From a virus (Duplodnaviria > Heunggongvirae > Uroviricota > Caudoviricetes), in the IMG/VR virus record IMGVR_UViG_3300014208_000038: DNA of 64,000 bases; one strand, given 5' to 3'. A program made the position numbers and the translations under genes. Below are positions 945 through 53,782 of this stretch, one piece after another; position 1 is the stretch's first letter, and each line of letters begins with the position of its first letter. The notes beneath the pieces were generated by a model. The model saw nothing but the letters and a program-made list of their open reading frames with translations, made no database searches and was not told the DNA's origin.

Positions 945-1111
945 TTTAAAGATGGAAACAATCATTCGATGGAATATTAAATTAGATAATGAAGAAATTC
1001 AAATAAAGAATCTTCCTCATTGGGTGTAAGCTAATTTTAGAAGGTTATTCAAGTGGAGCTTTAATTTTAGAAGAAAAAGAATATGTAAATTCCAGGAGGT
1101 AATAGATAAAT

Positions 1112-1474
1112 ATGATAATTGAGAAACACATAATAGAAGAAGCATTGGAGAAAGCAATTGCTTCTCATGAAGATAGAGCAAAAGGTGGATATGGGTTAGA
1201 AGATTGTCCATTATGTCTGCTAAGTGATATGGAATGCCAAGAATATTGTCCAATTGCTAAAATAACCTCACAGCGAGGATGTTCTGGTACTCCATATTCT
1301 AGAACACAAAACCAACAAGACTCGATATCATGGGGTGATTGTACTTGTCCAACAGATTGCCCTCACAGAGAGCGATGTGATAATGGGGAAACAGCGTATT
1401 GTATTCTAGAGGAAGAGAACGAAATTGCTTTCCTCAAATGGGTGAGATATAATCTGAAGATGGGATGGATTTAA
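1112..1474 (+). CDS. Cys-rich hypothetical protein
   Basis: 120 aa; SD ggaggtaatagataaatATG; several CxxC/CPxC pairs. Confidence 0.45.
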   Translation: MIIEKHIIEEALEKAIASHEDRAKGGYGLEDCPLCLLSDMECQEYCPIAKITSQRGCSGTPYSRTQNQQDSISWGDCTCPTDCPHRERCDNGETAYCILEEENEIAFLKWVRYNLKMGWI

Positions 1475-1475
1475 A

Positions 1476-2636
1476 ATGAGGGAAATTAAGACAGAGAGAA
1501 TTCCAATATGGTTATGGGCAGACTATATGGAGGATGGAGCTAAAAAACAGGCTATAAATTTAGCTTTGCATCCATATACTTTTAATCACATAGCAATAAT
1601 GCCAGATAATCATCAAGGATATGGTGTACCAATTGGTGGTGTAGCTGCCACAAAAGGGGTTATAATACCGGAGGCGGTAGGTGTAGACATTGGCTGTGGA
1701 ATGCGAGCAGTTAAAACATCTTTGATTAATATTCCTATTAATAAATTACAAACTATTGTAGATGAAATTAAACTTAAAATCCCGGTTGGGTTTAGTCATA
1801 GACAGGAATCTTTGCAAAAATATATGCCAACTCAATTTGCTCCTAAAATATTAGAAACAATCTATAAAGAATATGATTCTGCTTGTCATCAATTAGGCAC
1901 TTTGGGCGGAGGAAATCATTTTATTGAAATTCAAAAAGGTGATGATGGAAATATATGGATTATGGTTCATTCAGGTAGTAGAAATTTAGGGAAGAAAGTT
2001 GCTGATCATCATATTAGAATAGCTAATGAGCAAACGGAAAAATCAGAAGTTAATATTCCTCATTCTTGGGAATTAGATTATTTATATATTAATTCAATTG
2101 AAGGTAGATATTATATTGATGAAATGAGATACTGTATGCTATTTGCAAAAGCCAATAGACTTTATATGATGGATGAAATTCAAAAAATTATATTAAATGA
2201 ATATCCAGAAACAAGATTTATTTCTGAATACGATGTCCATCATAATTATGCAGAGATAGAAAATCATTATGACCAAAATGTGATGGTTCATAGAAAAGGG
2301 GCTACATCAGCAAGAAGAGGAGAAATTGGTATAATTCCTGGTAGTCAAGGAACTTCATCTTATATAGTTGAGGGTCGAGGAAATCAAAAATCATTTATGT
2401 CATGTTCTCATGGTAGTGGAAGAACTATGGGAAGAGGAGTAGCAAAGCGTACCCTTAATTTTGAGGAGCAAAAATCTCTTTTAGATAACCAAGGGATTAT
2501 TCATGATATGATCTCTGTAGATGCTTTAGATGAGGCCCCAGGAGCCTATAAGCAGATAGAAGAGGTAATAAAACAACAAATGGATTTAGTTAAACCAATT
2601 GTGAGACTAACTCCATTAGCTGTAATAAAAGGATGA
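1476..2636 (+). CDS. rtcB: RNA-splicing ligase RtcB (3'-phosphate/5'-OH RNA ligase)
   Basis: Hallmark RtcB motifs: MPDNHQGYGVPIGGV, HSGSRNLG, HHNYAEIE, SCSHGSGR. Confidence 0.9.
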   Translation: MREIKTERIPIWLWADYMEDGAKKQAINLALHPYTFNHIAIMPDNHQGYGVPIGGVAATKGVIIPEAVGVDIGCGMRAVKTSLINIPINKLQTIVDEIKLKIPVGFSHRQESLQKYMPTQFAPKILETIYKEYDSACHQLGTLGGGNHFIEIQKGDDGNIWIMVHSGSRNLGKKVADHHIRIANEQTEKSEVNIPHSWELDYLYINSIEGRYYIDEMRYCMLFAKANRLYMMDEIQKIILNEYPETRFISEYDVHHNYAEIENHYDQNVMVHRKGATSARRGEIGIIPGSQGTSSYIVEGRGNQKSFMSCSHGSGRTMGRGVAKRTLNFEEQKSLLDNQGIIHDMISVDALDEAPGAYKQIEEVIKQQMDLVKPIVRLTPLAVIKG

Positions 2637-2642
2637 TTTAAA

Positions 2643-3137
2643 ATGGAAAATAGATTAGAAAAAGAGATAGCTTTTTCTAGATTAGAAAAAGCAATTGATT
2701 TTGCTGTTCAAGCACATAGGGGTCAAACAGATAAAGTAGGTTTGCCTTATATTTTACATCCACTAGCAGTAATGTTTTATGGAAAATGTGAATCCGAAAG
2801 AATAGTTGGAGTTCTTCATGATGTAGTTGAAGATACTCCATATGGAATAAACGATCTTAATGAGATGGTGAGTCTGACTTCTGAAGAGGAAATAGCTTTA
2901 ATAGCTCTTACTCATCTTAAAAATGAACCATATATAGATTATATAAAAAGAATTGCTAATTCAAATCGATTAGCTATTGAAGTAAAATTAAATGATTTGT
3001 TTCATAATATGAGCGAAGAAAGAATGATGGGATTAGATGAGCAAACCCAAGTTAGATTGAAAAAGAAATATGATATAGCTTGGAGTATGCTTTACTCCCC
3101 AGGATGGCCATTCATTCTTTCTACAATTCAGCCATAA
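2643..3137 (+). CDS. HD-domain phosphohydrolase, RelA/SpoT-hydrolase-like (small alarmone hydrolase family)
   Basis: YILHPLAV...LHDVVEDT matches the SpoT/Mesh1 HD hydrolase signature; 164 aa single domain. Confidence 0.7.
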   Translation: MENRLEKEIAFSRLEKAIDFAVQAHRGQTDKVGLPYILHPLAVMFYGKCESERIVGVLHDVVEDTPYGINDLNEMVSLTSEEEIALIALTHLKNEPYIDYIKRIANSNRLAIEVKLNDLFHNMSEERMMGLDEQTQVRLKKKYDIAWSMLYSPGWPFILSTIQP

Positions 3138-3171
3138 TCCTTAAATACATTTACCACCACTAGTACATATT

Positions 3172-3489
3172 ATGTTAGACTCCAAAATTAGACCTCTGAA
3201 ATCTGGGGATAAAATTGTTTTAGAATATAATGGTTCAAAAAGAAGAATTAAGAAGATAGATAGGATTACTCCAAAAGGACAGATTGTCGTAGACGCAATA
3301 AGATTTTCTCCCAATGGGAAGGAAATGACCTCAAATTTTCCACACTATTCTTTGGATTATGTTACCTCTCAAGATATAGAGGACTTCAAAAGGAGAACTA
3401 TGGTTAAAAAGTGCCAGGGAACAAAATTAGAGGATTTAAACTTGGATCAATTAAATAGAATATATAAAATTATGCAGGAAGGTGTGTAA
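3172..3489 (+). CDS. hypothetical protein
   Basis: 105-aa ORF. Confidence 0.4.
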   Translation: MLDSKIRPLKSGDKIVLEYNGSKRRIKKIDRITPKGQIVVDAIRFSPNGKEMTSNFPHYSLDYVTSQDIEDFKRRTMVKKCQGTKLEDLNLDQLNRIYKIMQEGV

Positions 3490-3642
3490 AATGACAGGAT
3501 GGTGTCCAATAGCAAAAGTATATAATTCTGGATGTAATAATTGTAATCTGTATAGTTCTTACAACCATGATTGTAAATTCATTGTAGCTTTTAAAGAGGC
3601 ATTAGCAAAAGGGCAAATTAATTTTGTTAAGGAGTAAAAAAT

Positions 3643-3849
3643 ATGGATAGAATATATATTCAAAGTGATTGGGATTCAGAAGAATTTACAAAACTATTAA
3701 ACGCAAACAATATTCCGAGAATAGGGGAGAGAATAACTACAAAAGATTTAGAGGGGCAGAGATTTATTTACAAAGTTATAAATATAGAACATTCCCTAGA
3801 TCTTGAAAATAAAGAAAGAACAATTCATATAAATGTGAGTAGGCTATGA
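3643..3849 (+). CDS. hypothetical protein
   Basis: 68-aa ORF with SD ggagtaaaaaatATG. Confidence 0.4.
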   Translation: MDRIYIQSDWDSEEFTKLLNANNIPRIGERITTKDLEGQRFIYKVINIEHSLDLENKERTIHINVSRL

Positions 3850-4019
3850 AAAAATTGGAGGTATAAAACTATGATTAATTATCCTTATGTTGCGTTTTGT
3901 TTGTGGATGTTAAATCAAGAAATTAACAATTTTGTAAATAATTATTTAGATATAATTACGAATATGTCTTATTTACATTATGTTATTTATATTTAAAAAT
4001 TTTTGAGGAGGAAATTTCT

Positions 4020-5612: not shown

Positions 5613-6046
5613 AAGATAAACTAAAAAATTTATATGATATTTTAGAAATAAAATATCAAAATTTTAGATATCTTGACCTACCAGAATTTTATATGGACCA
5701 CATTCTGTTCTATTGGTTACATTATCTTTGCGGGCAAAAATGCGGTAATTGTCGAAATTGGACCTATACGGGTCGGTTACAATCTGATGGAATAGAAAGA
5801 GGAGATTGTTTTTTGTGGAAAGAAACTTTCTTGAGTTATCACGGACATTGTTTTTGTTGGAATCAAGATTTAGATGAAGATGAGAGAGGATATACTCATT
5901 GTGAAGATGGATGTGAAATGCTATGTGAAACTCCTAATGGAAAGCAAATTACTATGATTAGTAAAAATGGTAGATGGATGTATTTACACGATGGAGAGCC
6001 AACTTGGTATTCTAAATATGTAAAAAGGGGTGATTTAAATGAGTAG
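5606..6046 (+). CDS. Cys/His-rich hypothetical protein
   Basis: 146 aa; CGQKCGNC and other Cys/His clusters; overlapping start/stop. Confidence 0.4.
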   Translation: MLKDKLKNLYDILEIKYQNFRYLDLPEFYMDHILFYWLHYLCGQKCGNCRNWTYTGRLQSDGIERGDCFLWKETFLSYHGHCFCWNQDLDEDERGYTHCEDGCEMLCETPNGKQITMISKNGRWMYLHDGEPTWYSKYVKRGDLNE

Positions 6047-6686
6047 TAAGAATATAGCTCTAGAAGATCAATTAGCAGCAACTATTCATGCTTATACTTC
6101 GGGTCAAAGAAGATATATAGATGAATTTATTCAACAATATAAGATTGCCGCTGATCTACTTCAATTAGGTATTTACCCGGATGCAAAAGAGATTACTGAA
6201 AGCTATGGGGCTTTCAATGCTGTTAGAAAGTATTTAAAACAATATGATATGAATGACCCTGGAGTAACTTTGGTATCTGTGGGTGATGGCAGAAGTCCTA
6301 GAACAGCCGCTTTATTTGCCTTCAAAACTAAATGGAATTGTATTAGCATTGATCCTGGATTGGATGTTTCTAAGACAGATATGTGGGAATCCTCAATAAA
6401 GAGATTAACTTGTATTCCAAAAAAAGTAGAAGATATTTTGGATTATGGACCAATGTACTTTAAAAAAGTAGTTATAGTTGCAGTACATAGTCATGCTGAT
6501 ATGGGAGAAACATTAAAAACTATAATTGGTAATCCTTTAAGGAGCCTTGTAGCAATTCCTTGTTGTTTTCCTTGGGGTAGCCCGACTAAAAATCTGGATG
6601 GAAAAAGTTTTGCTCCAAGTACAGAATATAATGATAGTGGAATTTGGAGTCCGAAAAATAGAGTAAAAGTTTGGAAAAATATTTAG
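6039..6686 (+). CDS. hypothetical protein (weak Rossmann/methyltransferase-like G-x-G stretch)
   Basis: 215 aa; LVSVGDGRSPRTAALFA weakly resembles SAM-MTase motif I; not conclusive. Confidence 0.4.
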   Translation: MSSKNIALEDQLAATIHAYTSGQRRYIDEFIQQYKIAADLLQLGIYPDAKEITESYGAFNAVRKYLKQYDMNDPGVTLVSVGDGRSPRTAALFAFKTKWNCISIDPGLDVSKTDMWESSIKRLTCIPKKVEDILDYGPMYFKKVVIVAVHSHADMGETLKTIIGNPLRSLVAIPCCFPWGSPTKNLDGKSFAPSTEYNDSGIWSPKNRVKVWKNI

Positions 6687-6698
6687 GAGGAATTCGTA

Positions 6699-7070
6699 AT
6701 GAAGAAATCTTTAATTGAAATGTGCAAGTTATTAAAAGAGAAAGCCACACACGGAGAATGGGGGCCTGGCGATCTAGAAAAGAACTGTATCGCAGAAGAT
6801 GGTGGGAAAGGAAAAGTCGTGCTTCGCTACACCAACGGGGGTATAATACCATCACGAGAGAACATTAATCTGATATGTGACCTACGAAATACTGTTCCGA
6901 AGTTGCTTGACGTTTTGGATTTTCAACTAGGGGATGCTAAGCGATTGGCGGTGCTACTTAGGTTGCAAGTTATCAATGATGTATGCACGCAAGAGGAAAT
7001 TGATATGCTAGACAGATTACATACGATGTGTTGCAAGATGGAGGCGAAAAGCAATGAGTACACAAAATGA
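6699..7070 (+). CDS. hypothetical protein (inside GC-rich island)
   Basis: 123 aa; SD taggaggaattcgtaATG; local GC about 45-50% vs about 30% background. Confidence 0.4.
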   Translation: MKKSLIEMCKLLKEKATHGEWGPGDLEKNCIAEDGGKGKVVLRYTNGGIIPSRENINLICDLRNTVPKLLDVLDFQLGDAKRLAVLLRLQVINDVCTQEEIDMLDRLHTMCCKMEAKSNEYTK

Positions 7071-7299
7071 TCTGTACGATACGGAACAGGAACTGGAAGC
7101 AGCCATTCTACGAATAGATACCCAGGATAAGCAGATAGCCGCTCTGAAAACAACAATGATCAAAACACAAGCGGAATTGGATTTTTCAACCGGATCACAT
7201 GGATGCCCTTACATTGGTGATGAAGCAAGAAGGCTAAAAGCGGCTCGAAATACGCTCAAGTCCAAGCTGCCTATGATTGATTGGGAGGACATGAAATGA
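7054..7299 (+). CDS. coiled-coil hypothetical protein
   Basis: 81 aa; C-terminus LPMIDWEDMK is encoded by a 45-bp direct repeat. Confidence 0.4.
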   Translation: MSTQNDLYDTEQELEAAILRIDTQDKQIAALKTTMIKTQAELDFSTGSHGCPYIGDEARRLKAARNTLKSKLPMIDWEDMK

Positions 7300-7625
7300 A
7301 TGAATTCTGGATAGGCAACACCCGTGAAAACGCGATCAGAGCGCGAGATAATTATCATGCAGAAATCATGCGATTGGAGAAGGCGCGTGCTGAAAGTGAA
7401 AATTCCTGGATAGAGGAAATCGCAGAGCTGCATAAGCAGATTTCCTCCTTGAAAACTGCCCTTATTCGAGAAACTGCCCGAAGTACATATTACGAAAATG
7501 GATTGGGAAAGGGTGTATGTACTTGGTTCAATCTGGAAGGATTAGCCAGAATATCCAAAGAAGCGGAGGCCAAGGGCAAATTGGCTCGCGATCTACCTAT
7601 GATTAGTTGGGAGGATATGAAATGA
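7296..7625 (+). CDS. coiled-coil hypothetical protein (starts MNEFWIG; ends LPMISWEDMK)
   Basis: ATG at 7296 overlaps upstream TGA (ATGA); the track start at 7281 is TTG; the same repeat forms both its start and its end. Confidence 0.4.
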   Translation: MNEFWIGNTRENAIRARDNYHAEIMRLEKARAESENSWIEEIAELHKQISSLKTALIRETARSTYYENGLGKGVCTWFNLEGLARISKEAEAKGKLARDLPMISWEDMK

Positions 7626-7729
7626 ATGAATTCTGGATAGGATTCATGACGGGGGCAATAATATCAGTGGCTATAATATACATAGCCATTAATTTAAATA
7701 GGAGAGGATGTCATGAGTGATGATCTCAT
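7622..7729 (+). CDS. small TM protein starting MNEFWIG (third use of the repeat-encoded start)
   Basis: 35-aa hydrophobic ORF; ATGA overlap with upstream. Confidence 0.25.
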
Positions 7730-8045
7730 AGAGGATGCCATCAGTTGTCTAAGAGGCGAAGGATGGGACAAGGAAGCAGACGCGGTCGTTGGTTTGGTAG
7801 CCGAGGTTAAACGCCTCCGAAAAGAGAACGATTGCCTGCGAAACGGTACATGTGTAGAAAGTGAGAAAATCAGCCAAGCAGATAGCTATCTGGAAGAGTT
7901 GGAAAATGCTTTCTTGGATGCTAAAAAAGGCGAATTATATTTCAGGGAATATTCCAAACGGGGCGATATAACCCTACCAGATGCTTATGACCGGGCAAAA
8001 AAAGAGGCGCGAGATGCCTTAGACAAGATTCGTGTAAGTAGGTAA
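7713..8045 (+). CDS. hypothetical protein (GC-rich copy; N-terminus MSDDLIEDAISCL)
   Basis: 110 aa; the N-terminus has an AT-rich paralog at 8181. Confidence 0.4.
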   Translation: MSDDLIEDAISCLRGEGWDKEADAVVGLVAEVKRLRKENDCLRNGTCVESEKISQADSYLEELENAFLDAKKGELYFREYSKRGDITLPDAYDRAKKEARDALDKIRVSR

Positions 8046-8180
8046 CAATTGGATGATATGGCGGAATTTTTGGTGGAAGATAAATGATGAGTGAATATTC
8101 TGAGAAAATATGCTATGTATGGGACGCCCATCGATTGGTGCTTCTGCATTTTTCGCGGGGTTTTTATTGGGAGTACTTGT

Positions 8181-8534
8181 ATGTCGATGAGTGATGATCT
8201 TATAAAGAAAATAGAGACATTGTGTGATACTAGCTATAAAGGTGGGCAATCCAAGAATGCACAGAATCAAGTATATGGAATTAGATATTTAGAATTATGT
8301 AATTTACTTCCTAAATTACTGACTAAAATCAAATGCTTTCAAGAACAAAAGGATGCATGGTTAAAAACTCTAGAAAAATTAGGAAGTTTATCTATTCAGC
8401 AGCATGAAAATTTTAATAATTTAGCAGATTTTGCATTAAAAATAATTGACGAAGCTGAAGAACAGATTCTTGCTCAAGATCTAGAAATAAAAAAACTTAA
8501 ATTGGAATTAGCTAAATATAAAGGAAAAGAATAA
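8181..8534 (+). CDS. hypothetical protein (AT-rich paralog; MSMSDDLIKKIETLC)
   Basis: internal ATG at 8181 preferred over the track start at 8091; N-terminus parallels 7713 ORF. Confidence 0.4.
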   Translation: MSMSDDLIKKIETLCDTSYKGGQSKNAQNQVYGIRYLELCNLLPKLLTKIKCFQEQKDAWLKTLEKLGSLSIQQHENFNNLADFALKIIDEAEEQILAQDLEIKKLKLELAKYKGKE

Positions 8535-8631
8535 TTTATACCTAGATAATCATTTTGAGTATTTTGTAGAATGAGCAAAATCTTTATATATCAATATATA
8601 CCTATATTGCAATTGTGAGGTGTAATAAGAA

Positions 8632-8862
8632 ATGAAGCTTAGAACCGTGATACAGGCAATTCATAGTGTTAAGGAAGATATATCGAATATGGATTTGGGT
8701 TCTGCAAAAAAGCAACTAGACCAATTAGTAAAATTATTTGAAACAGAAGGGGTAGAAGTAACCCAAAATGTTAAACCAGAATATCCTCTTTATGGTGATT
8801 GTGGAGGTATTCTTACTGAAAATTGGGAGTATAATGATGAAAAATATCTAGATCAGGAGTGA
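8632..8862 (+). CDS. hypothetical protein
   Basis: 76-aa ORF. Confidence 0.4.
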   Translation: MKLRTVIQAIHSVKEDISNMDLGSAKKQLDQLVKLFETEGVEVTQNVKPEYPLYGDCGGILTENWEYNDEKYLDQE

Positions 8863-8868
8863 TTCTTA

Positions 8869-9123
8869 ATGGAAACTTCTAAAGTTTATGATTTAGCAGG
8901 AGATTTTGCAGATAAAGTAGATTATAGAACAAGACTCCTCCGACCAGAAACTTGGTTTGAATATTTTATTAATAAAGCAGTTAATCCAGAATATATTGAT
9001 TTTCTAGTATTCTGTGAGACAACAGAACGGTATTTATCTATACAAAAATTGATGGATATAGAAAAGGCTTTTATAATTGGTGTGGAAATAGGAATGTTAG
9101 AGTTCGATAAGAAGGAGGTTTAA
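8869..9123 (+). CDS. hypothetical protein
   Basis: 84-aa ORF. Confidence 0.4.
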   Translation: METSKVYDLAGDFADKVDYRTRLLRPETWFEYFINKAVNPEYIDFLVFCETTERYLSIQKLMDIEKAFIIGVEIGMLEFDKKEV

Positions 9124-9126
9124 AAA

Positions 9127-9336
9127 ATGTCGTCCAATAATGCAATTCTAATTAAGAAAGTGGGTCCAAAAATTGAAGTTAGAGATGTTTGTGTAGATAC
9201 TTATCCCGACTATCCAGGATCTCTAATTTGTGTTATAGAATATTCTCCTAATGCTCTTCAGACAGCAATCCGAATTGCTCAAAAATATATGAGGGAGAAT
9301 GTAGTAGAATATGGTATCACATTTGAGGGGATTTAA
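9127..9336 (+). CDS. hypothetical protein
   Basis: 69-aa ORF; SD aaggaggtttaaaaaATG. Confidence 0.4.
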   Translation: MSSNNAILIKKVGPKIEVRDVCVDTYPDYPGSLICVIEYSPNALQTAIRIAQKYMRENVVEYGITFEGI

Positions 9337-9344
9337 GAAAAATC

Positions 9345-9431
9345 CTTAAATAAAATATTTAAGGGAAACCCTTAAATAAAATATTTAAGGGAAACCCTTA
9401 AATAAAATATTTAAGGGAAACCCTTAAATAC
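9345..9431. repeat. perfect tandem repeat: 3 full + 1 partial copies of the 26-bp unit CCTTAAATAAAATATTTAAGGGAAAC; each unit contains a 9/9-bp palindrome (CCTTAAATA...TATTTAAGG)
   Basis: read directly; intergenic, upstream of the Ubl/E1 operon. Confidence 0.9.
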
Positions 9432-9515
9432 TAATATGTGCTTAGTATTTAATACTGCGATACGAAAATGTTTGTGTCGCTTAAGAATAAAAAATAAAGA
9501 GAGGACTGATAAAAA

Positions 9516-9767
9516 ATGGTAAAGGAAATAACAACTGGAATGGTACTGGAAGATGTTAAACTGCCTGAGAACAGAGAAGAAGGTTCTTGGATTGTAATGG
9601 ATGCAAAATTAGAACAATCCGTTACATTTGACGAGAAACCTACTTGGGATGAACTCCAAGATGTAAAAGAAGGTATATTTGGATATTCCAAAGCCAAGAT
9701 GGCTGTTAACGAAGAGTTAAACTTAATTGTCTTAACTCCAGTAGATGTTTCCGGTTTTTCTTTTTAG
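9516..9767 (+). CDS. small protein, candidate ubiquitin-like modifier precursor
   Basis: 83 aa immediately upstream of the E1/E2/JAB genes; ends ...VDVSG-FSF (a Gly followed by a 3-aa tail that could be trimmed); no Ubl fold is demonstrable from sequence. Confidence 0.3.
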   Translation: MVKEITTGMVLEDVKLPENREEGSWIVMDAKLEQSVTFDEKPTWDELQDVKEGIFGYSKAKMAVNEELNLIVLTPVDVSGFSF

Positions 9768-9830
9768 AAAAACCTTAACGGGTTTTTTCTTTTTAGAAAT
9801 TTTTTATAATTTTTTTCTAAAAAGAAAATC
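9753..9830. repeat. two direct copies of GGTTTTTCTTTTTAGAAA plus one inverted copy (TTTCTAAAAAGAAAA) between the Ubl candidate and the E1 gene
   Basis: read directly; the first copy encodes the last codons and stop of the 9516 ORF. Confidence 0.8.
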
Positions 9831-9877
9831 TTTTTAAGAAAACTTAAATATTTTTTAAATATAAAAATAGAGGAGGA

Positions 9878-10441
9878 ATGATTTTCACGAAAAATATTGC
9901 TATTATTGGCTCAGGTGGATTAGGAGCAAACCTTACAATGCTTTTGTTGGATCAAGGATACAATGTATTTTTGATAGATGGAGATACAGCAGATGAGAAG
10001 TTTTTTAAGAGATTTTCCACATTTACCAACTCTTTTGTTCTTAACTCAGGAAGAGCAAAGGTAGAAGTAGTAAAATCTGTAGCTCGTGGAAGAGGTTATG
10101 AAGATAAAATTAGAACTAGATCAGTAATGGTTGGACCGGAATTTGATTACAACTTATTTAAGCCTTATGAGCTGGTAATCATTGCGGTGGATACAATTAC
10201 TGGAAGGCAAACTATTGAGCTTAATCTTAAAAAGAATGGATTGACTAATTTTATCCACGTAGGGCTCAATCTGAATAGCATTAGTATTTTTAAGACGGCT
10301 GATGGATTACTAGGGGCAGATCCGCTACCGGATGCTCAAACTTCATATGATAGAGTCCCGGATGCAAGAACATATCTTACAGCTTGTTTAGAAGTATTAG
10401 ATATAATTGATCCTGTAACCATTCAGGTATATAAGGAGTAA
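9878..10441 (+). CDS. ThiF/MoeB-family E1-like adenylyltransferase (short, 187 aa)
   Basis: Rossmann IAIIGSGGLGANLTMLL...DGDTADEKFFKRF, parallel to E1 G-x-G-x-x-G ... D-x-D-x-x-E-x-x-N/R; SD agaggaggaATG. Confidence 0.65.
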   Translation: MIFTKNIAIIGSGGLGANLTMLLLDQGYNVFLIDGDTADEKFFKRFSTFTNSFVLNSGRAKVEVVKSVARGRGYEDKIRTRSVMVGPEFDYNLFKPYELVIIAVDTITGRQTIELNLKKNGLTNFIHVGLNLNSISIFKTADGLLGADPLPDAQTSYDRVPDARTYLTACLEVLDIIDPVTIQVYKE

Positions 10442-10447
10442 ATAAAT

Positions 10448-11536
10448 ATGTCTCAAACCTCTTATTTTTTTAAAGTTTCTCTCATTAATAATGGAACAAA
10501 GATCTTACTTTCTTATCATATAAAAGAATATATAACGAGAGAATCTCAGGAATCTATTGCTAGAAGTATTAATCAAAAATTTCCAGATGGACTTGCAGAC
10601 CTCAGAAGATTGATCAGTTTTGATATTTTATCTTCGCTTCGATCTTATAAAAGATATACTTATAATTTTTACATTCCTCCAACAAATGTAGCAGAATCTA
10701 ACTCAAAAGTTATTCCTGTATTAAAATATTTAGAACCAATTTTAGCAGGATTAGACCTAATTGATCAAAAAGAGGCCAGCACAAAAAAGATATGGACAGA
10801 AATTGTAAGGGAGAAAAATGTTCATCCTCTTCTTGTGACAGGAGAAAAAGTTTATAAGTTGACTTTAGTGGAAGATGTTAGTGGCCGTCCTATTAGACCA
10901 ACAGAAGCCTTCCAGGAAGCAATTAATGAAGAAGTAGAAAGCATAAAAATTCAATATGAGCAAATGTTATCCCAGGGAATAGAAAGCTTTAAGAAAGAAA
11001 ATTTTACTTCTTATGTTTTGAGAATAGAAGATTTTCAACAAGGTTTTGTAAGTTTTCTTGATTCACAAAATAATCCTTGTCTTGCTAAAAAAGTTATGTT
11101 TTGTCCTCTTCATATTATGTTTAGCTCTCAAGATATTAGAAAAATTAAACAGGAATATAGAGAAAAAATGAAACAAGAAGTTTTTATTGTATATAATTCT
11201 AATAGTAGAATATCTGTATATGAATCAAATGGGGTAACTCCGGCAAAGCTTCCTCATAATTGGAATGGAGGAGCGATGTGTACGGGAAGCTATCACATTG
11301 AATCTAATGTGAGTGATGTTGTTAAGGCAAAAGAAATAGTGAATCATATTGAGGAAATGCTTCAAATGATTAATATGACATCTTTGGCAGATGGCTATAT
11401 TTTATATGATGGAGAGCTAAAATTTATGAGAACTATTTCTACAGACTTACGAGATATTTGTGAATCTAATACGCCGGTACAATCAACTTGGAATGAAAAT
11501 AGGGAAACAGTAATTTATGATGGGCAAATTCTTTAA
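10448..11536 (+). CDS. protein with C-terminal E2-like (UBC-fold-like) catalytic motif
   Basis: LPHNWNGGAMCTG resembles the E2 HPN-x4-G-x-I-C motif (His-Asn then Cys about 8 aa later); sits between the E1 and JAB genes. Confidence 0.45.
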   Translation: MSQTSYFFKVSLINNGTKILLSYHIKEYITRESQESIARSINQKFPDGLADLRRLISFDILSSLRSYKRYTYNFYIPPTNVAESNSKVIPVLKYLEPILAGLDLIDQKEASTKKIWTEIVREKNVHPLLVTGEKVYKLTLVEDVSGRPIRPTEAFQEAINEEVESIKIQYEQMLSQGIESFKKENFTSYVLRIEDFQQGFVSFLDSQNNPCLAKKVMFCPLHIMFSSQDIRKIKQEYREKMKQEVFIVYNSNSRISVYESNGVTPAKLPHNWNGGAMCTGSYHIESNVSDVVKAKEIVNHIEEMLQMINMTSLADGYILYDGELKFMRTISTDLRDICESNTPVQSTWNENRETVIYDGQIL

Positions 11537-11542
11537 AAAGGA

Positions 11543-12241
11543 GTGAGTTTAAAAATGTTAGATGAAGTAAAGCATAGTCAATGTCCCATATGCACCGATT
11601 TAGATACTTCAAAATGTGAGGTTAAAATGGGTGCCGTGGTTTGGGGTTATCTTCAAGCCCTAATGTATAAAATGGGAAGTCAAGAATTTGCTGCGTATCT
11701 TTTGGGGTCCATAAGTGAAGATGGACAAAAATTTATTGTTGATGAGTATTATATTCCAACACAGGGAGTAAATTCAGTAAATGTAGAGATAGGCGAAGAA
11801 ATTTTTACAATACCAAAAGAAATTAGGGAAAGAATAATTGGTCATCTACATTCTCATCATATAATGGGTTTCTCTCCAAGCGGAACAGACAAGGAACATC
11901 TTAATTATCCTTTACATATCATAATTGCACATCAAGGATATAAAACCACAATTAGAAAGAGGGTTGGATGTGGTAAATGGCTTGCTATTTCTGATGTTCC
12001 GATTACGTTCTATTCGGATTATGTAGAGCTGGGTGAGACTGAAAAAATTGAGATCGTACAACCAAAATATGTTGATTTATATCAAAGTAGATTAGATGAG
12101 GGTGGAAATTATTTTGATCCTGTGGAAGAAAAAGATAATTTTGAAGAGTACCAAAAATATTTAGAAAATGAAAATAATTCTTGGTTTCCCCCATCATCGG
12201 AAGTGGTAAGCCGAGAAATTCAAGATGGAATGGAGATTTAA
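11543..12241 (+). CDS. JAB/MPN (JAMM) metalloprotease, deubiquitinase-like
   Basis: JAMM motif HLHSHHIMGFSPSGTD (H-x-H-x7-S-x2-D); upstream Glu present. Confidence 0.75.
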   Translation: MSLKMLDEVKHSQCPICTDLDTSKCEVKMGAVVWGYLQALMYKMGSQEFAAYLLGSISEDGQKFIVDEYYIPTQGVNSVNVEIGEEIFTIPKEIRERIIGHLHSHHIMGFSPSGTDKEHLNYPLHIIIAHQGYKTTIRKRVGCGKWLAISDVPITFYSDYVELGETEKIEIVQPKYVDLYQSRLDEGGNYFDPVEEKDNFEEYQKYLENENNSWFPPSSEVVSREIQDGMEI

Positions 12242-12243
12242 AT

Positions 12244-12441
12244 ATGAGTGGGTTTGACCGTTTATGTATTACAGTAAGAGAAGATCAAAGAGAAGAAATG
12301 AAAAAATATCCTGAAAATTATTCAGGGTGGGTTCAAATATTTTTAGACATGCTATTGAAAAATTTAGCAATAGCAAAAGAAAAAACAGAAAGGGAATTTT
12401 TAGAAAAAATTGATGATAAAAGAGATGATAATGCACAATGA
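12244..12441 (+). CDS. hypothetical protein
   Basis: ATG at 12244 directly after the JAB stop; the track start at 12181 overlaps the JAB gene. Confidence 0.35.
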   Translation: MSGFDRLCITVREDQREEMKKYPENYSGWVQIFLDMLLKNLAIAKEKTEREFLEKIDDKRDDNAQ

Positions 12442-13130: not shown

Positions 13131-13146
13131 AGAGGAAGGAAAAATT

Positions 13147-13299
13147 ATGGAAGAGTGTGCTTATTGTTATGATCCGATTAAAACAAATGTTTACTATGTG
13201 GCAGGTATGACATTTCATCAAGAGTGTAAAGAATATCTTAAACAAAATCCTGACTGCTGGCCACAGAGTCAAACCGAAGTTGAAGAATGCCGACCTAAA
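13147..13299 (+). CDS. small Cys-rich (zinc-ribbon-like) protein
   Basis: 50-aa ORF not in track; SD gaggaaggaaaaattATG; CAYCYD...HQEC...DCW. Confidence 0.35.
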
Positions 13300-13347
13300 T
13301 AATAGTAACTAAAGAATAGGAATAACAAATAGAGGAGGAAAAAGAAT

Positions 13348-30913: not shown

Positions 30914-30932
30914 AAAAACTCTCTGAATTTAA

Positions 30933-31004
30933 TCTGTACTCCCGAAGTTGAATCGGGTTAATCTCGGTCTACAGCCGAGTGCATAACCGTTCTGCCAAGT
31001 ACAG
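30933..31004 (-). tRNA. tRNA-Tyr (anticodon GUA), 72 nt, C1:G72 pair
   Basis: manual fold: acceptor CTGTACT/AGTACAG, anticodon arm CTCGG-CTGTAGA-CCGAG, T-arm CCCGA-TTCAACT-TCGGG; C1:G72 is the archaeal/eukaryal Tyr identity pair; no encoded CCA. Confidence 0.7.
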
Positions 31005-31257: not shown

Positions 31258-31295
31258 AAGAGCAGTGATTATGTGCCCAATATCCCTATCACCAA

Positions 31296-31458: not shown

Positions 31459-32109
31459 ATGAAATACCCTCATACTCCATATTTTAGTTTTAGTCCAGCA
31501 GTAAGCGAGAAAGATAGAAACAGAAAGGATGTATATATTAATTTACAACATCTTCTTAATAAGCCTTTAGTATTTACTATTAAGATGGATGGTAGTAATT
31601 TAGGAATGACTAGAGAAAAAATATTTGCTAGGAATGGAATTGATGCCAGGCACAAATCGTTTGACTTAGCAAAGAGCCTTCATAACAGAATTAAGAAAGA
31701 AATTCCAGAAAATGAAATTTGGTATGGAGAGTGGTTGTATGCTAAACATTCTATTCATTATTCTGATCTAGAATCGTACTACCAATTATTTGCTATATAT
31801 TTTGTTGAAGAAGATTATTGGACTGGAGTTAATTGGATAAAGAATAGGGCAGAACTTCATGGACTGAAAACCGTGCCTTTGCTTACTAGAGGACCACAAT
31901 ACGGGGATGTTAAAACTTTGAAGCAGGTAATTCAACAGGAGGGAGACAGAGTAATTAAAATGGGTCAAGAAGGTATTGTGGTTAGAACCAAAGATGGGTT
32001 TTACGCAAAAGACTTAAATAAGTGTATAGCGAAATATGTTCGTGCAAATCATATTCAAACCGATGAGCATTGGAAAACACAGAAAATTGTGAAAAATTTA
32101 TTGAGGTGA
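31459..32109 (+). CDS. compact ATP-dependent polynucleotide ligase (KxDG nucleotidyltransferase), RNA/DNA ligase-like
   Basis: motif I TIKMDGSNLG (Lys-x-Asp-Gly), motif IV-like EWLYAKHS, motif V-like GIVVRTKDG...AKYVR; 216 aa. Confidence 0.6.
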   Translation: MKYPHTPYFSFSPAVSEKDRNRKDVYINLQHLLNKPLVFTIKMDGSNLGMTREKIFARNGIDARHKSFDLAKSLHNRIKKEIPENEIWYGEWLYAKHSIHYSDLESYYQLFAIYFVEEDYWTGVNWIKNRAELHGLKTVPLLTRGPQYGDVKTLKQVIQQEGDRVIKMGQEGIVVRTKDGFYAKDLNKCIAKYVRANHIQTDEHWKTQKIVKNLLR

Positions 32110-38591: not shown

Positions 38592-38957
38592 ATGGAATTT
38601 AAATATAAAATGGCAATAGTTATAAGAAAAGATTTAGAAATGTCTCCTGGAAAACTTGCAGGACAATGTGCTCATGCTGCCTGTGGATGTTTGAGGGCAC
38701 CCATAGGACCAGAAAAATCAAAATATATAGAGGAATGGTTTGAAGAAGGTCAAGTGAAAGTAATTTTGCAAGTAGAAAAACAAGCAGATTTACATATGTT
38801 AGCTTCTAAATGTTTATTAGAAGAAGTACCTTATTATTGTGTTAGAGACTTTGGACTTACAGAATTGGAACCTAATACGCTTACTTGTGTAGGAATTGGT
38901 CCAGATCTCAAAAAGAATGTAGATAAAATTACGGGAAATCTTAAACTATATAGGTGA
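38592..38957 (+). CDS. pth2: peptidyl-tRNA hydrolase, PTH2 (archaeal/eukaryotic type)
   Basis: MAIVIRKDLEMSPGKLAGQCAHAA matches the PTH2 signature (V.R.DL.M..GK.AAQ.AHA); about 120 aa; SD ggaggaatttaagatATG. Confidence 0.8.
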   Translation: MEFKYKMAIVIRKDLEMSPGKLAGQCAHAACGCLRAPIGPEKSKYIEEWFEEGQVKVILQVEKQADLHMLASKCLLEEVPYYCVRDFGLTELEPNTLTCVGIGPDLKKNVDKITGNLKLYR

Positions 38958-39667: not shown

Positions 39668-39862
39668 ATGGATGAGAAACAAAAAGTTTTTGTCTACGGT
39701 CTTAGGACTGTAATAAGACAAAAAATCAAGAAAACTGGGGATACAGTTAATAAAGGACAGTTAAGAACAATAGATACAGTTATTGATGGACTTAATATTA
39801 TAGAAGATATGAGTTTAGAAGAGGTTCAAAAATTAATGAAGAAAATGGAAGGTGAGATTTGA
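39668..39862 (+). CDS. hypothetical protein
   Basis: SD aaggaggataagtaaaATG. Confidence 0.4.
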   Translation: MDEKQKVFVYGLRTVIRQKIKKTGDTVNKGQLRTIDTVIDGLNIIEDMSLEEVQKLMKKMEGEI

Positions 39863-40896
39863 TGGAGCAAAATCAAAAATCTAGGCATCTAGCCTCTGTT
39901 CAACAAATTGTAGATATTCAACCTATTGAAAATGCTGATTCTATTGAACTAGCTCGTGTATTAGGTTGGAATGTAGTAATTAAAAAAGGACAATTTAAAG
40001 TGGGAGATCCTATAGTATATTTTGAAATTGATAGTGTCCTCCCCAAAATTCCTGATTTTGAGTTTCTTAAAGATAAGCATTACAAAGTAAAAACTTGTCG
40101 TCTACGTGGAGCTATTTCCCAGGGGCTATGTACTCCATTAAGTATTCTGCCCGAAGGACATTATGATCTTGGAGATGATGTAACAGAGATTCTTGGAGTA
40201 ACTAAATACGAGAAGCCTATTCCTGTTCAGTTGAGAGGGAGAGTTCGAGGTAATTTTCCAAGAGGGATACCTAAAACAGAAGAGCTGCGGGTTCAATCTA
40301 TTCCACATATAGTAAGTAAATATCAAGGATATACGTTTACTCTAACTGAAAAATTAAATGGTACTTCTGCTACGTATTTTTTGGATGAAGAGACTGGATT
40401 ACATTGTTGCAGCAGAAATTTAGATTTACATCCAGAGACGGTACACAAATTCAATGGAACTGCGTATTGGTTTTTGGCTGAGAAACTAAATATTGAAGAA
40501 ATTATTAAAACATTAGGTAAAAATATCGTGATCCAAGGAGAAATCATTGGCAATGGAATTAATGGAAATCAATATAAATTGAATGATCTTCAACTAAAGA
40601 TATTTAATTTATATGATAAAGAAAACCATGTATATCTGGATCAACAAGTAATGAATGATATCATAGAAGGTCTTGGATTTTCTAAAGATTTTTTTGTCCC
40701 GTATCTTGGACAGATTACGTTGGATCAGAATGTAGATCAAATTGTGGAAATGGCTTATGGAAGATCTGTAATTAATCCAGATGTAATTCGGGAAGGCTTA
40801 GTTTTCCGAGCCAGTCCAGAGATTATAGATCCATTTGTGGGCAGAGTAAGCTGGAAATGTATCTCTCCGAGCTTTAACCTAGAGTTCAAAGAATAA
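39859..40896 (+). CDS. RNA ligase-like nucleotidyltransferase (Rnl2-like family) with N-terminal extension
   Basis: motif I-like TEKLNGTSATYF (K-x-N-G in place of K-x-D/H-G), downstream EGxV and K-rich motif V-like regions; 345 aa. Confidence 0.5.
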   Translation: MMEQNQKSRHLASVQQIVDIQPIENADSIELARVLGWNVVIKKGQFKVGDPIVYFEIDSVLPKIPDFEFLKDKHYKVKTCRLRGAISQGLCTPLSILPEGHYDLGDDVTEILGVTKYEKPIPVQLRGRVRGNFPRGIPKTEELRVQSIPHIVSKYQGYTFTLTEKLNGTSATYFLDEETGLHCCSRNLDLHPETVHKFNGTAYWFLAEKLNIEEIIKTLGKNIVIQGEIIGNGINGNQYKLNDLQLKIFNLYDKENHVYLDQQVMNDIIEGLGFSKDFFVPYLGQITLDQNVDQIVEMAYGRSVINPDVIREGLVFRASPEIIDPFVGRVSWKCISPSFNLEFKE

Positions 40897-52427: not shown

Positions 52428-53009
52428 ATGAATTCTAAAAATGATAGAGCTAAAAAGTTAATGGGTTTAAGACCAATAGGAGAAGTATTAAACCCAAATT
52501 TTAGCTTTATTTGTCCTGTTTGTCAAAATGCTTTGCAATTATCCGAATATAATAATTTTTTATGGTGTAAATATTGTAATATAGATATGCCTATCTATTT
52601 AGGATGGAAAGTTCTTTTAATAGATGATGTAAAAGCAATTACAAAAGATTTTTTAAATTTAATAGAAAACATAAAAAAAAATCCTTCTATTGCTAATTAT
52701 ATGGAAAATATAAGGTCAAAAACTTCTCTTGCTTATTGTATAATAAGTATTTTAGAAAAAGAAGGAGAAATAGAATTTAGAAAATTTAGATTTCTTTTAT
52801 TTGAATTATATTCAAATTTAAAAACAAAAAATATAGATATTAAGCTGCCTCATTATTGGTATGTAGACGGACCTCATATATATCTTAGAGGATTACCAGC
52901 AGTATTTAAACTAAGAATTAAAAAGAGTTTGGAAGATCCGAAGATATATAAAGTTACAATTTTATTAGATAAAAATATAAGCCCAAAATGTATAGAGGAA
53001 AACTTTTAA
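52428..53009 (+). CDS. zinc-finger hypothetical protein
   Basis: CPVCQN...CKYCN. Confidence 0.4.
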   Translation: MNSKNDRAKKLMGLRPIGEVLNPNFSFICPVCQNALQLSEYNNFLWCKYCNIDMPIYLGWKVLLIDDVKAITKDFLNLIENIKKNPSIANYMENIRSKTSLAYCIISILEKEGEIEFRKFRFLLFELYSNLKTKNIDIKLPHYWYVDGPHIYLRGLPAVFKLRIKKSLEDPKIYKVTILLDKNISPKCIEENF

Positions 53010-53035
53010 ATACAATTAAGGAGAATAGTAAGATT

Positions 53036-53782
53036 ATGTCGCAAAATAGATATCCATCCTTGGGAGACAGGATGAAAGAATATGAGGCAATTTCTCAAAA
53101 TAAATTGACTAGAAGGATGCCGGTTATTATTAGATTAGATGGCAAAGGATTTCATAATTATACAAGAAAAATGAAAAAACCTTATGATTCAGATCTTCAG
53201 TTAAATATGTGGAGATCTACAATAAGATTGTGTCAAGAGGTCCAAAATACAGTACTTGCATATTGTCAAAGTGATGAGGTTAGTCTTCTTATTGTAGACT
53301 ATAACACATTGAACACTCAACCTTGGTTTGCTAATGAAGTACAAAAATTATGTTCTCTAGCGGCATCTAGTATGACTCAATATTTTAATGATCCCCAAAC
53401 TAGAGGTGAATTACCTTATGGAGCGCGGTTTGATGCTAGATGTTTTAATCTTCCAAGGGAAGAGGTTACAAACTATTTTATTTGGAGAGAATTAGATTGG
53501 ATAAGAAATAGTATTCAAATGTTAGCACAATATTATTTTAACCCAAAAGAGTTATATAAGAAAAATACTAACCAAATGAAAGAAATGATTTTAAAAGAAA
53601 CTGGAATAAATTGGGATACTAATTTACAACCCTTCCAACGTAGAGGAACTACTTGTATAAAGAAAAATGAGAAATGGATTGTTGATTGTAATCTTCCAAT
53701 GTTTAACGAGAATAGAAATTATATAGAAAATTTATTATATAATGATAAAAATATTTTAGATAGTCCCAAAACCTTTTTATAG
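53036..53782 (+). CDS. Thg1-like protein (tRNA-His guanylyltransferase / 3'-5' nucleotidyltransferase family)
   Basis: N-terminal ...PVIIRLDGKGFHNYT... and ...AYCQSDEVSLLI... match the Thg1/TLP palm motifs; SD aaggagaatagtaagattATG; the track start 52988 is an over-extension. Confidence 0.6.
   Translation: MSQNRYPSLGDRMKEYEAISQNKLTRRMPVIIRLDGKGFHNYTRKMKKPYDSDLQLNMWRSTIRLCQEVQNTVLAYCQSDEVSLLIVDYNTLNTQPWFANEVQKLCSLAASSMTQYFNDPQTRGELPYGARFDARCFNLPREEVTNYFIWRELDWIRNSIQMLAQYYFNPKELYKKNTNQMKEMILKETGINWDTNLQPFQRRGTTCIKKNEKWIVDCNLPMFNENRNYIENLLYNDKNILDSPKTFL

Follow-up and report, generated by a model that had tools for sequence, protein, structure and literature searches.

An RtcB RNA ligase and an Aph1-type small alarmone hydrolase encoded side by side in the early region of an uncultured phage

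RtcB RNA ligases and Aph1-type small alarmone hydrolases (SAHs) are each recognized kinds of phage counter-defense gene. The phage conflict genes listed in a survey of jumbo phages include RtcB, Rnl1/2, Thg1, PTH2 and an "HD-alarmone PDEase" (PMC7824862). Aph1 and all 12 of the 12 homologs tested hydrolyze ppApp; modest activity on ppGpp was found in two only, and Aph1 itself needed D24R plus R119A to hydrolyze ppGpp (PMC10083569). The authors defined the Aph1 family through a C-terminal homology region, Y90-E143 (PMC10083569). Aph1 is a tetramer. The SAHs of phages PVP-SE1 and SSU5 neutralize the toxSAS CapRel, PhRel, PhRel2, FaRel2 and FaRel (PMC7229694, Table 1). That of PVP-SE1, from the PbcSpo subfamily, neutralized all toxSAS tested, including those that pyrophosphorylate tRNA (PMC7229694). 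Kurata et al. found that pyrophosphorylated tRNA can be aminoacylated again after treatment with either of two SAHs, ATfaRel and MESH1. ATfaRel has been placed in the PbcSpo subfamily (PMC7229694) and degrades both ppGpp and ppApp (PMC10083569).

We analyzed a locus in which genes for an RtcB and an Aph1-type SAH are neighbors (Table 1). This is not a new system. The window, that is, the whole stretch of 64,000 nt that was analyzed (IMG/VR record IMGVR_UViG_3300014208_000038), comes from a large uncultured phage of roughly 30% GC that probably infects an anaerobe, and the locus lies in a densely packed early/replication region. Megablast of positions 1000-4000 against isolate phages gave no match, and the phage is without a close cultured relative.

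Table 1. Features of the window discussed in the text.
Feature	Coordinates	Strand	Match or remark
Cys-rich 120-aa ORF, function unassigned	1112..1474	+	ends 1 nt before rtcB ATG
RtcB, 386 aa, short form; predicted RNA 3'-phosphate or 2',3'-cyclic-phosphate to 5'-OH ligase	1476..2636	+	PF01139
Small alarmone hydrolase, Aph1 / PbcSpo type, 164 aa (HD protein); predicted adenosine 3'-pyrophosphohydrolase	2643..3137	+	PDB 7smg 1.1e-19; phrog_990
105-aa ORF, weak likeness to phage ProQ C-terminal-like domain	3172..3489	+	phrog_9662 1.2e-12
RNA ligase	31459..32109	+	PF09414 1.3e-21; 28 kb from locus
PTH2 peptidyl-tRNA hydrolase	38592..38957	+	PF01981 7.7e-37; first found by phmmer
RNA ligase with N-terminal PHA02142 OB-fold domain	39859..40896	+	PF21189 9.5e-29, PF09414 5.2e-22
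Thg1-like 3'-5' nucleotidyltransferase	52988..53782	+	PF04446 1.8e-28

Judged from its sequence, the first gene of the pair encodes a complete RtcB in which none of the catalytic motifs is missing. The metal ligands and GMP-accepting histidine of Pyrococcus horikoshii RtcB are D95, C98, N202/H203, H234, H329 and H404. The window RtcB has D71 and C74 (in DIGCG), N147/H148 (GGGNHF), H165 (MVHSGSR), H256 (DVHHN) and H312 (SHGSGR) in alignment with these residues. The protein matched PF01139 at 1.1e-107 (361.3 bits; cut-off 27), phrog_1075 at 2.3e-114 (residues 3-386 covered), and PDB 1uc2/4dwq at 9.4e-48 with the metal-binding and GMP-histidine motifs all aligned. The initial annotation, made from the sequence alone, had called this gene an unambiguous RtcB with its signature motifs, and the Pfam match and aligned catalytic residues agree. 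The nearest named cellular homologs were ~56% identical (from Desulfobacterales and other MAGs) and the nearest RtcB from an isolate phage was 40.5% identical. Profile searches of the ORFs flanking rtcB for RtcA and RtcR domains found neither.

The second gene encodes a single-domain SAH of the RelA/SpoT (RSH) superfamily. As the initial annotation had described, its 164-aa product has an HD hydrolase signature, with HPLAV from residue 39 and HDVVEDT from residue 59. The match to Pfam HD_4 (PF13328), at 15.3 bits, fell below the gathering cut-off of 27.2, so membership rests on other matches; precomputed PF13328 assignments are present on many close homologs. The protein matched TIGR00691 (spoT_relA) at 1.4e-11, over the hydrolase portion at the N terminus of the model, and phrog_990 at 2.4e-36. 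At E ≤1e-3, 16 RSH-hydrolase chains in the PDB were found by sequence and 38 matches by structure, every one of the latter an RSH hydrolase. The protein clusters with RSH hydrolases; clustering with generic HD phosphohydrolases would have spoken against the initial annotation. In RelSeq, the HD motif, ED diad and metal/ribose ligands are H53, H77-D78, E81-D82, D144 and N148. The corresponding H39, H59-D60, E63-D64, D118 and N122 are present in the window protein and vary little or not at all across 120 homologs and in a second alignment. The AlphaFold model (pLDDT 90.6) is one helical domain with eight main helices and short turns, and profile searches of the 164 residues found no synthetase or regulatory domain.

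Within this superfamily the protein appears, from its sequence and its predicted fold, to belong with Aph1. It is probably not SpoT-like in the sense of a (p)ppGpp hydrolase. The best PDB match by sequence was 7smg, annotated as a (p)ppApp hydrolase, at 1.1e-19 (residues 13-146 aligned by HMMER to Aph1 7-137); Rel and SpoT matched at 1e-12 or weaker. Foldseek also placed 7smg at the top (TM 0.79/0.91, rmsd 1.8 Å, 37-38% identity, E 1.5e-9, 142 columns), ahead of MESH1, PaSAH, Rel and SpoT. Normalized to the target, the TM score was 0.91 for 7smg compared to 0.55-0.67 for MESH1, PaSAH and RelH. Both alignments cover the C-terminal homology region that defines the Aph1 family, and the model has the compact fold of Aph1, with fewer helices than (p)ppGpp hydrolases. 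Five of the six Aph1 signature residues are present: D30, R103, R127, K142 and Y143. Among the nearest 120 homologs, D30 was found in 116, R103 in 117, R127 in 116, K or R at 142 in 119, and Y143 in all 120. The sixth position, D116 in Aph1, is S124 here. This counts against an assignment to Aph1, although serine is still a common variant in the family (D in 83 of the 120, S in 19 and N in 13). The specificity pair of Aph1, D24/R119, is kept as D30/R127; BsRel and AbSpoT have Arg at the position of D30. Because this pair is kept and 7smg is the best match by both sequence and fold, ppApp-like substrates, which the initial annotation had listed as one option, are a better reading than (p)ppGpp. 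The "SpoT-like" label of that annotation holds for membership in the RSH superfamily and has to be refined for the substrate that it implies. On the family-level data, the substrate would be an adenosine 3'-pyrophosphate.

Related proteins are found in cultured phages. The HD protein is 41% identical to gp220 of PVP-SE1 (5e-25), which is itself Aph1-like (7e-27) and is presumably the PVP-SE1 SAH assayed by Jimmy et al. (PMC7229694). In all, phrog_990 was present in 331 isolate phage records. Matches of the HD protein in Listeria phages were marginal (E = 1e-3, 42% coverage).

The spacing between the two genes is tight, and it is the norm for this genome. The rtcB gene ends with a TGA stop at 2634-2636, and the ATG of the HD gene follows after 6 nt, the gap that the initial annotation had noted. 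The junction reads AAAGGA-TGA-TTTAAA-ATG, with AGGA ~9 nt 5' of the HD gene ATG. On the plus strand of the window, ~122 ORFs are separated by a median of 13 nt, and the gap is ≤10 nt in 57 of 121 cases. Thus, tight spacing says nothing about coupling of rtcB and the HD gene. The repeated junction sequence GGATGRATTTAAAATG had two matches, a number equaled in 12 of 100 shuffles, and so was not over-represented. We rejected it as a special element; it is an SD plus an A/T-rich spacer, as is usual in this genome.

Based on the spacing and the missing convincing terminator, rtcB and the HD gene are probably part of one long early transcript with their neighbors. Separate transcription would have weakened the pairing initially proposed, and nothing that we found argues for it. 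The sole terminator-like site flagged on the plus strand, a perfect 10-bp palindrome at 2670-2692, lies within the HD ORF. Its folding compared to that of shuffled sequences was not significant (z = -1.8), and we rejected it as a terminator. The palindrome arises from a small RLEKEI/RLEKAI duplication. An Rfam scan around the locus found no structured RNA. In PADLOC, neither RtcB nor the HD protein had a match, nor did six of eight other locus-proximal proteins; the sole match near the locus was a weak E1-E2 match to a ThiF-like ORF.

The Cys-rich ORF upstream of rtcB had no match in Pfam, PHROG or PADLOC and only four homologs among 5.8 billion proteins. It lies upstream of RtcB in L001, L002 and L005 and not in L096. 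This ORF is part of a collinear block, yet it has no link to RtcB outside the lineage of the window. The 105-aa ORF downstream of the HD gene matched PF24203 at 0.0053, under the cut-off. A homolog follows the HD gene in L005, from a sister lineage, and there was no counterpart in the 80 viral HD loci.

We found that rtcB and the HD gene are not a conserved unit; their adjacency is specific to the lineage of the window and its sister and is rare elsewhere. A single-sequence search with the locus in IMG/VR found no relatives; finding them there took an alignment-based search. Among close relatives, the adjacency was kept only in L001, L002 and L005. The sister lineage, at 72% identity, keeps it as a four-gene collinear block. 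Traced from the HD gene, the next relatives had no RtcB nearby (L003, L004 and L006-L010); traced from RtcB, they had no HD gene nearby (L093-L095). RtcB was within 10 kb of the HD gene in 2 of 80 viral HD loci, and the two genes were close together in 1 of 911 isolate phage records. Clustering of the neighbors at 85 HD loci revealed no dominant partner family (maximum recurrence 7/85). The high-GC phage L037 has rtcB followed directly by the HD gene with a 5-nt gap, an independent recurrence; in Microcystis phage Mwe-JY26 a distance of 1.3 kb separates the two, and in L089 one of 6 kb. These cases may hint at weak co-selection. Together with the ordinary gap, the distribution does not uphold the functional pair that had been implied.

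Other RNA-repair genes are present in the window. Two further ligases, PTH2 and a Thg1-like enzyme had been reported there by the initial annotation, and profile matches confirmed all four, the ligases as RNA ligases (Table 1). DHH and NADAR genes lie just past the window. Pnkp, RtcA and a CCA-adding enzyme were not among the genes identified in the window. In a related phage, L094, RtcB is clustered with a CCA-adding enzyme, a DHH protein and an Rnl.

This phage is rich in RNA repair genes, and we favor, with somewhat more confidence than doubt, the notion that RtcB and the HD protein, both from its early region, are two independent damage-reversal enzymes directed against host abortive-infection toxins. 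RtcB would reseal RNA, chiefly tRNA, that had been cut by metal-independent RNases such as anticodon nucleases to leave 2',3'-cyclic-phosphate or 3'-phosphate and 5'-OH ends; sealing of such ends by RtcB ligases depends on GTP and Mn2+. The HD protein is predicted to remove a 3'-pyrophosphate from adenosine in an Mn2+-dependent reaction. One possible substrate is free (p)ppApp from toxic RSH synthetases; a plausible additional one is pyrophosphorylated A76 at the CCA end of tRNA, generated by toxSAS of the CapRel/FaRel2/PhRel type. The adjacency of the two genes would be a lineage-specific accident of accessory-gene packing and not an obligate partnership. The main competing notion, which we consider doubtful, is that the genes are a dedicated tRNA-rescue cassette: the SAH would act on the 3'-pyrophosphorylated CCA end and be co-selected with an RtcB that repairs the anticodon loop, so that together they would restore tRNAs that host defenses attack at one end or the other. 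Retention of the four-gene block in the sister lineage, the recurrence in L037, the proximity in Mwe-JY26 and L089, and the heavy investment of this phage in tRNA repair are all consistent with such a cassette. So are the neutralization of tRNA-targeting toxSAS by phage SAHs of the PbcSpo and PaSpo subfamilies (PMC7229694) and the removal of pyrophosphate from tRNA by SAHs (Kurata et al.). However, the adjacency is gone in the next-closest relatives of either gene, proximity is as infrequent as described above, and near-zero gaps are ordinary in this genome. In addition, 28-50 kb separates the locus from the other tRNA-repair genes of the window, which therefore form no repair "island" with it. 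The chemistry also argues against a cassette. An SAH leaves a 3'-OH, and RtcB needs a 3'-phosphate or 2',3'-cyclic phosphate; therefore a single RNA end cannot be processed first by one and then by the other. The chemistries are incompatible and the ends that are acted on differ, so that no pathway logic demands that the two genes be linked. A broader version, in which Aph1-type SAHs of lytic phages are primarily RNA-end repair enzymes (for the tRNA CCA 3'-pyrophosphate left by CapRel-like defenses) and their repeated and independent placement with RtcB, in the window lineage and L037 and more loosely in Mwe-JY26 and L089, marks a selected two-ended tRNA rescue module, seems to us quite unlikely.

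The remaining alternatives concern what the HD protein hydrolyzes or protects against. It could be a (p)ppGpp hydrolase of the SpoT kind: by damping the stringent response of the host, it would let transcription, translation and nucleotide synthesis continue in infected cells. The protein does have the full catalytic set of the RSH hydrolase superfamily, its homologs are often annotated as ppGpp hydrolases in databases, and ATfaRel, of the PbcSpo subfamily (PMC7229694), accepts ppGpp as well as ppApp (PMC10083569). Nucleotide-metabolism genes are also frequent neighbors of its relatives: thymidylate kinase in 4MG and PVP-SE1, both Seunavirus phages, and genes resembling thymidylate synthase in L003, L007 and L008. 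Nonetheless, the protein has Asp30 at the site of the Arg with which Rel/SpoT contact guanine, and it retains Arg127, when Aph1 needs both positions mutated to gain ppGpp activity; 10 of 12 tested Aph1 homologs did not hydrolyze ppGpp (PMC10083569); and Aph1 scores far above every ppGpp hydrolase by sequence and fold. These findings make (p)ppGpp an improbable substrate. We consider it very improbable that the SAH protects the phage from a (p)ppApp-synthetase toxin of its own, such as a MuF fusion. Such self-immunity is the founding context of Aph1, in a Bacteroides prophage (PMC10083569), and some SAH homologs on viral contigs adjoin head-morphogenesis genes (SPP1-type portal, XkdF protease). 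But there was no RelA_SpoT synthetase domain in window ORFs of at least 180 aa or in the genes called within the 10 kb downstream of the window, on a contig of up to 104 kb, and the HD gene is in the early/replication region and not by portal or MuF genes. The adjoining synthetase toxin and structural immunity protein that would identify a MuF-Apk2/Tis1/Aph1-type module were not found at the locus, and only 0.4% of Aph homologs have a MuF gene nearby (PMC10083569). Another phosphoester, for example NADPH or PAPS as for MESH1, or a different 3'-phosphorylated nucleotide or signaling molecule, is similarly hard to credit. The fold matches do include MESH1 structures with NADPH and PAPS, and RSH hydrolases are versatile in catalysis, but the MESH1 match was much weaker than that of Aph1 (E ~2e-5 compared to 1.5e-9; TM to target 0.64 compared to 0.91) and the Aph1 signature is conserved.

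These results bear on how similar genes are read. Phage genes of the phrog_990 type annotated as "SpoT-like" or "metal-dependent phosphohydrolase" bear the adenosine-specific signature of Aph1. A role in countering toxic RSH enzymes that are specific for adenine and make (p)ppApp or pyrophosphorylated tRNA is a better reading of such genes than modulation of the stringent response. The phage described here, itself uncultured, joins the phages with a broad RNA-repair and counter-defense kit, which in its case comprises RtcB, two Rnl ligases, Thg1, PTH2, an SAH, DHH and NADAR. It also illustrates that a tiny gap between neighbors is no evidence of coupling where half of the gaps in a genome are equally small.

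The locus shares parts with several known systems and differs from each. With the bacterial rtcBA-rtcR RNA repair operon (PMC7790460) it shares an RtcB ligase with identical catalytic residues; unlike in the operon, no RtcA cyclase or RtcR regulator adjoins RtcB, and the flanking genes are phage ORFans. Phage RNA-repair toolkits include T4 Pnkp/Rnl1, which acts against PrrC, and jumbo-phage sets with RtcB, Rnl1/2, Thg1, PTH2 and a CCA-adding enzyme (PMC7824862). The window similarly has RtcB, two Rnl-type ligases, Thg1 and PTH2 together, but here the genes are scattered across 50 kb and are not clustered. The PVP-SE1 (PbcSpo) and SSU5 (PaSpo) SAHs (PMC7229694) are, like the HD protein, stand-alone and phage-encoded, PVP-SE1 gp220 is Aph1-like, and the PVP-SE1 SAH is reported to counter toxSAS that produce (pp)pApp as well as those that pyrophosphorylate tRNA. 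In PVP-SE1 and 4MG, however, the SAH gene comes after thymidylate kinase and not RtcB. Aph1 of the Bacteroides caccae prophage (PDB 7smg; PMC10083569) likewise consists of a single HD domain of ~150 aa, and its D24, R96, R119, K133 and Y134 and all metal-binding and catalytic residues are also present in the HD protein. The HD protein differs in having S124 for D116, ~15 extra, poorly modeled C-terminal residues and a short N-terminal extension. Neither a (p)ppApp synthetase fused to MuF nor an immunity gene like Tis1 lies beside its gene, which instead adjoins RtcB in the early region of a phage that is large and apparently lytic.

We found that the HD protein is clearly a member of the RelA/SpoT hydrolase superfamily, despite a sub-threshold score with Pfam HD_4 (15.3 versus 27.2 bits). 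The HMM search proposed in the initial annotation placed it among the RSH hydrolases (TIGR00691 against its N-terminal hydrolase part, 1.4e-11). All 38 structure matches with E <=1e-3 were RSH hydrolases, and the protein carries H39, H59-D60, E63-D64, D118 and N122. Inside the superfamily it sits with Aph1 (PDB 7smg), both by sequence (7smg, 1.1e-19; Rel/SpoT, 1e-12 or weaker; classical small alarmone hydrolases (SAHs), 3e-5 or weaker) and by predicted fold. The model (pLDDT 90.6) matched 7smg with TM 0.79/0.91, rmsd 1.8 A and E = 1.5e-9, and MESH1 with E ~2e-5 and TM-to-target 0.64.

Aph1, from a Bacteroides caccae prophage, is a hydrolase specific for (p)ppApp with a six-residue signature: D24, R96, D116, R119, K133 and Y134 (PMC10083569). 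D24R plus R119A enabled ppGpp hydrolysis by Aph1; 12 of 12 Aph1 homologs tested hydrolysed ppApp, and only 2 had modest ppGpp activity (PMC10083569). The HD protein shares five of these residues (D30, R103, R127, K142 and Y143), each conserved in 116-120 of its 120 nearest homologs. Unlike Aph1, it has S124 in place of D116, a site where 83 of the same homologs carry D, 19 S and 13 N. Rel and SpoT have Arg at the position of D30. Based on the signature and the activities of the tested homologs, the HD protein is better predicted to be an adenosine 3'-pyrophosphohydrolase. The earlier label "SpoT-like" is correct for the superfamily.

The N-terminus of the HD protein is longer than that of its homolog in the sister lineage L005, due to a short tandem duplication that also gave rise to a palindrome (see table); folding of the palindrome was not significantly better than that of shuffled sequence. 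The homolog in L003 is about twice the usual length, which may reflect an extra domain, a fusion or a gene-calling artefact.

Features of the window, and of related viral loci where a locus is named
Feature	Position	Strand	Description
Cys-rich ORFan	1112-1474	+	120 aa, 12 Cys; ends 1 nt 5' of rtcB
RtcB	1476-2636	+	386 aa; Pfam PF01139
HD protein	2643-3137	+	164 aa; RelA/SpoT hydrolase superfamily
Palindrome	2670-2692	+	perfect, 10 bp, within HD ORF; from duplication RLEKEI/RLEKAI
Gene trio	9878-12241	+	ThiF/E1-like (187 aa), 362-aa ORF, JAB-domain gene (232 aa)
TnpB/IS605 OrfB	20726-22015	+	OrfB_IS605 and Cas12f1-like TNB domains
Islet	30131-31370	-	zf-C2H2; MTES_1575/DUF559 endonuclease
UDG-fused, intein-bearing DnaE	57444-62750	+	1768 aa; N-terminal uracil-DNA-glycosylase domain fused to PHP/DnaE-type Pol III alpha; intein with LAGLIDADG homing endonuclease
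PrimPol, NrdD, SNF2 helicase, radical-SAM enzyme			encoded in window
Two PF09414 RNA ligases, Thg1, PTH2			encoded in window
L003 P0012	8001-8849		HD homolog, 282 aa
L009 neighbourhood	1-20492		SAH homolog after full-length DnaJ gene
L094 cluster	6001-13176		RtcB (60% identical), CCA-adding enzyme (PolyA_pol), DHHA1 protein, PHA02142-type RNA ligase
L098 genes	11607-13637		DHH/DHHA1 phosphoesterase (314 aa), NADAR-domain protein (158 aa); 1.2-3.2 kb past window 3' end

The RtcB and HD ORFs are as initially described. RtcB, a short form, scored 361 bits with its Pfam family (cut-off 27). Aligned to P. horikoshii RtcB, it keeps D71/C74, N147/H148, H165, H256 and H312, which we take to be the metal-binding residues and the histidine that accepts GMP. 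Named RtcBs from Desulfobacterales and other MAGs share ~56% identity with it, those of isolate phages at most 40.5%. No RtcA or RtcR is encoded by the flanking ORFs. The upstream Cys-rich ORFan, with just 4 homologs in 5.8 billion proteins, adjoins RtcB in the window lineage and L005 and not in locus L096.

The rtcB-HD adjacency is lineage-specific. The 6 nt between the RtcB TGA and the HD ATG (AGGA lies ~9 nt 5' of the ATG) are uninformative, because 57 of the 121 intergenic gaps in the window are <=10 nt. In L005 (HD 72%, RtcB 86% identical), four genes remain together: the Cys-rich ORF, RtcB, HD and a 105-aa ORF. The next HD relatives (L003, L004 and L006-L008; 53-59% identity) come from phages that share the SNF2, radical-SAM and metallophosphoesterase genes; there, HD lies after a thymidylate-synthase-like gene and RtcB is absent for 8-10 kb around. 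In L009 and L010 it lies 3' of a DnaJ gene with a Tad3 gene nearby. The flanks of the next-closest RtcBs (L093-L095, 59-65% identity) had no HD homolog. Co-occurrence in related elements, a check proposed in the initial annotation, was rare: of 80 IMG/VR loci that encode an HD homolog (<=10 kb flank per side, 1.34 Mb total), two also encode RtcB, directly upstream in L037 and 6 kb off in L089. When RtcB and HD were searched as one concatenated query in 50,697 isolate phage records, 911 had either gene and only Microcystis phage Mwe-JY26 had both close together, with six small ORFs between them. No neighbour family recurred in >7 of 85 HD loci.

RtcB needs a 3'-phosphate or 2',3'-cyclic phosphate, and a SAH releases pyrophosphate, leaving a 3'-OH. 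The two would therefore not act in sequence on the same RNA end; each would counter a different insult. We favour a reading in which the two are independent enzymes that reverse damage, encoded in the early region of a phage rich in such genes. It is possible, if rather unlikely, that rtcB and the SAH form a co-selected tRNA-rescue cassette. In L037, a 58% GC phage contig, a helicase gene is followed by RtcB (390 aa, 30% identical) and, after a 5-nt gap, HD (130 aa). This juxtaposition is clearly independent of the window lineage, but a few chance adjacencies are expected with ~100-200 genes per genome and hundreds of lineages, so it is a weak hint only. A ppGpp hydrolase acting on the stringent response is improbable, being disfavoured by the signature residues. 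Self-immunity against a phage-borne (p)ppApp synthetase is very improbable; no synthetase was found in window ORFs >=180 aa or the next 10 kb, which are part of the genome. We likewise give very little weight to action of the HD protein on another substrate.

The gene content of the window, including the two other ligases, PTH2 and Thg1-like gene noted initially, marks a large-phage origin. Nearly all genes are on the + strand, GC is ~30%, and metagenomic contigs up to 104 kb contain the same sequence. Megablast of window 1000-4000 found no close relative among isolate phages. The TnpB gene lies within a 44% GC island, which suggests a recent IS insertion. The E1-like/JAB trio, also present in L001, had a weak E1-E2 match in PADLOC and could represent a ubiquitin-like conjugation or deconjugation set carried by the phage. 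The sole minus-strand islet adjoins tRNA-Tyr(GTA) and tRNA-Pro(TGG), and GC skew collapses there; Rfam at gathering score confirmed tRNA-Pro alone, the tRNA-Tyr call being weaker. In L098, the DnaE region is followed by the DHH/DHHA1 and NADAR genes, further candidates for nucleotide-signal or ADP-ribose counter-defence, and then by a block of minus-strand genes.

In L009 and L010, from a different phage, the SAH homolog has as neighbours genes for Tad3, PARP/WGR, Ro60/TROVE, NT5C, dCMP deaminase and ankyrin-repeat proteins, an arrangement that resembles a dense neighbourhood for counter-defence and RNA quality control. L094 has a real RNA-repair cluster, whereas the repair genes of the window are scattered.

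The Salmonella phage PVP-SE1 encodes gp220, which shares 41% identity (5e-25) with the HD protein and whose best solved match is likewise Aph1 (7e-27). The stand-alone SAHs of PVP-SE1 (PbcSpo subfamily) and SSU5 neutralise all toxic small alarmone synthetases (toxSAS) tested: FaRel, a (pp)pApp producer, and the translation inhibitors CapRel, PhRel, PhRel2 and FaRel2 (Jimmy et al., PMC7229694). gp220 is presumably the exact PVP-SE1 protein tested. The translation inhibitors named above pyrophosphorylate the tRNA CCA end, and the ATfaRel and MESH1 SAHs reverse this (Kurata et al.); later work states the same de-pyrophosphorylation for the SSU5 SAH. Since 3'-pyrophosphorylated adenosine is common to both toxSAS products, (pp)pApp and modified tRNA, an Aph1-type enzyme would be chemically suited to either substrate. 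A jumbo-phage survey already lists RtcB, Rnl1/2, Thg1, PTH2 and "HD-alarmone PDEase" as large-phage conflict genes (PMC7824862).
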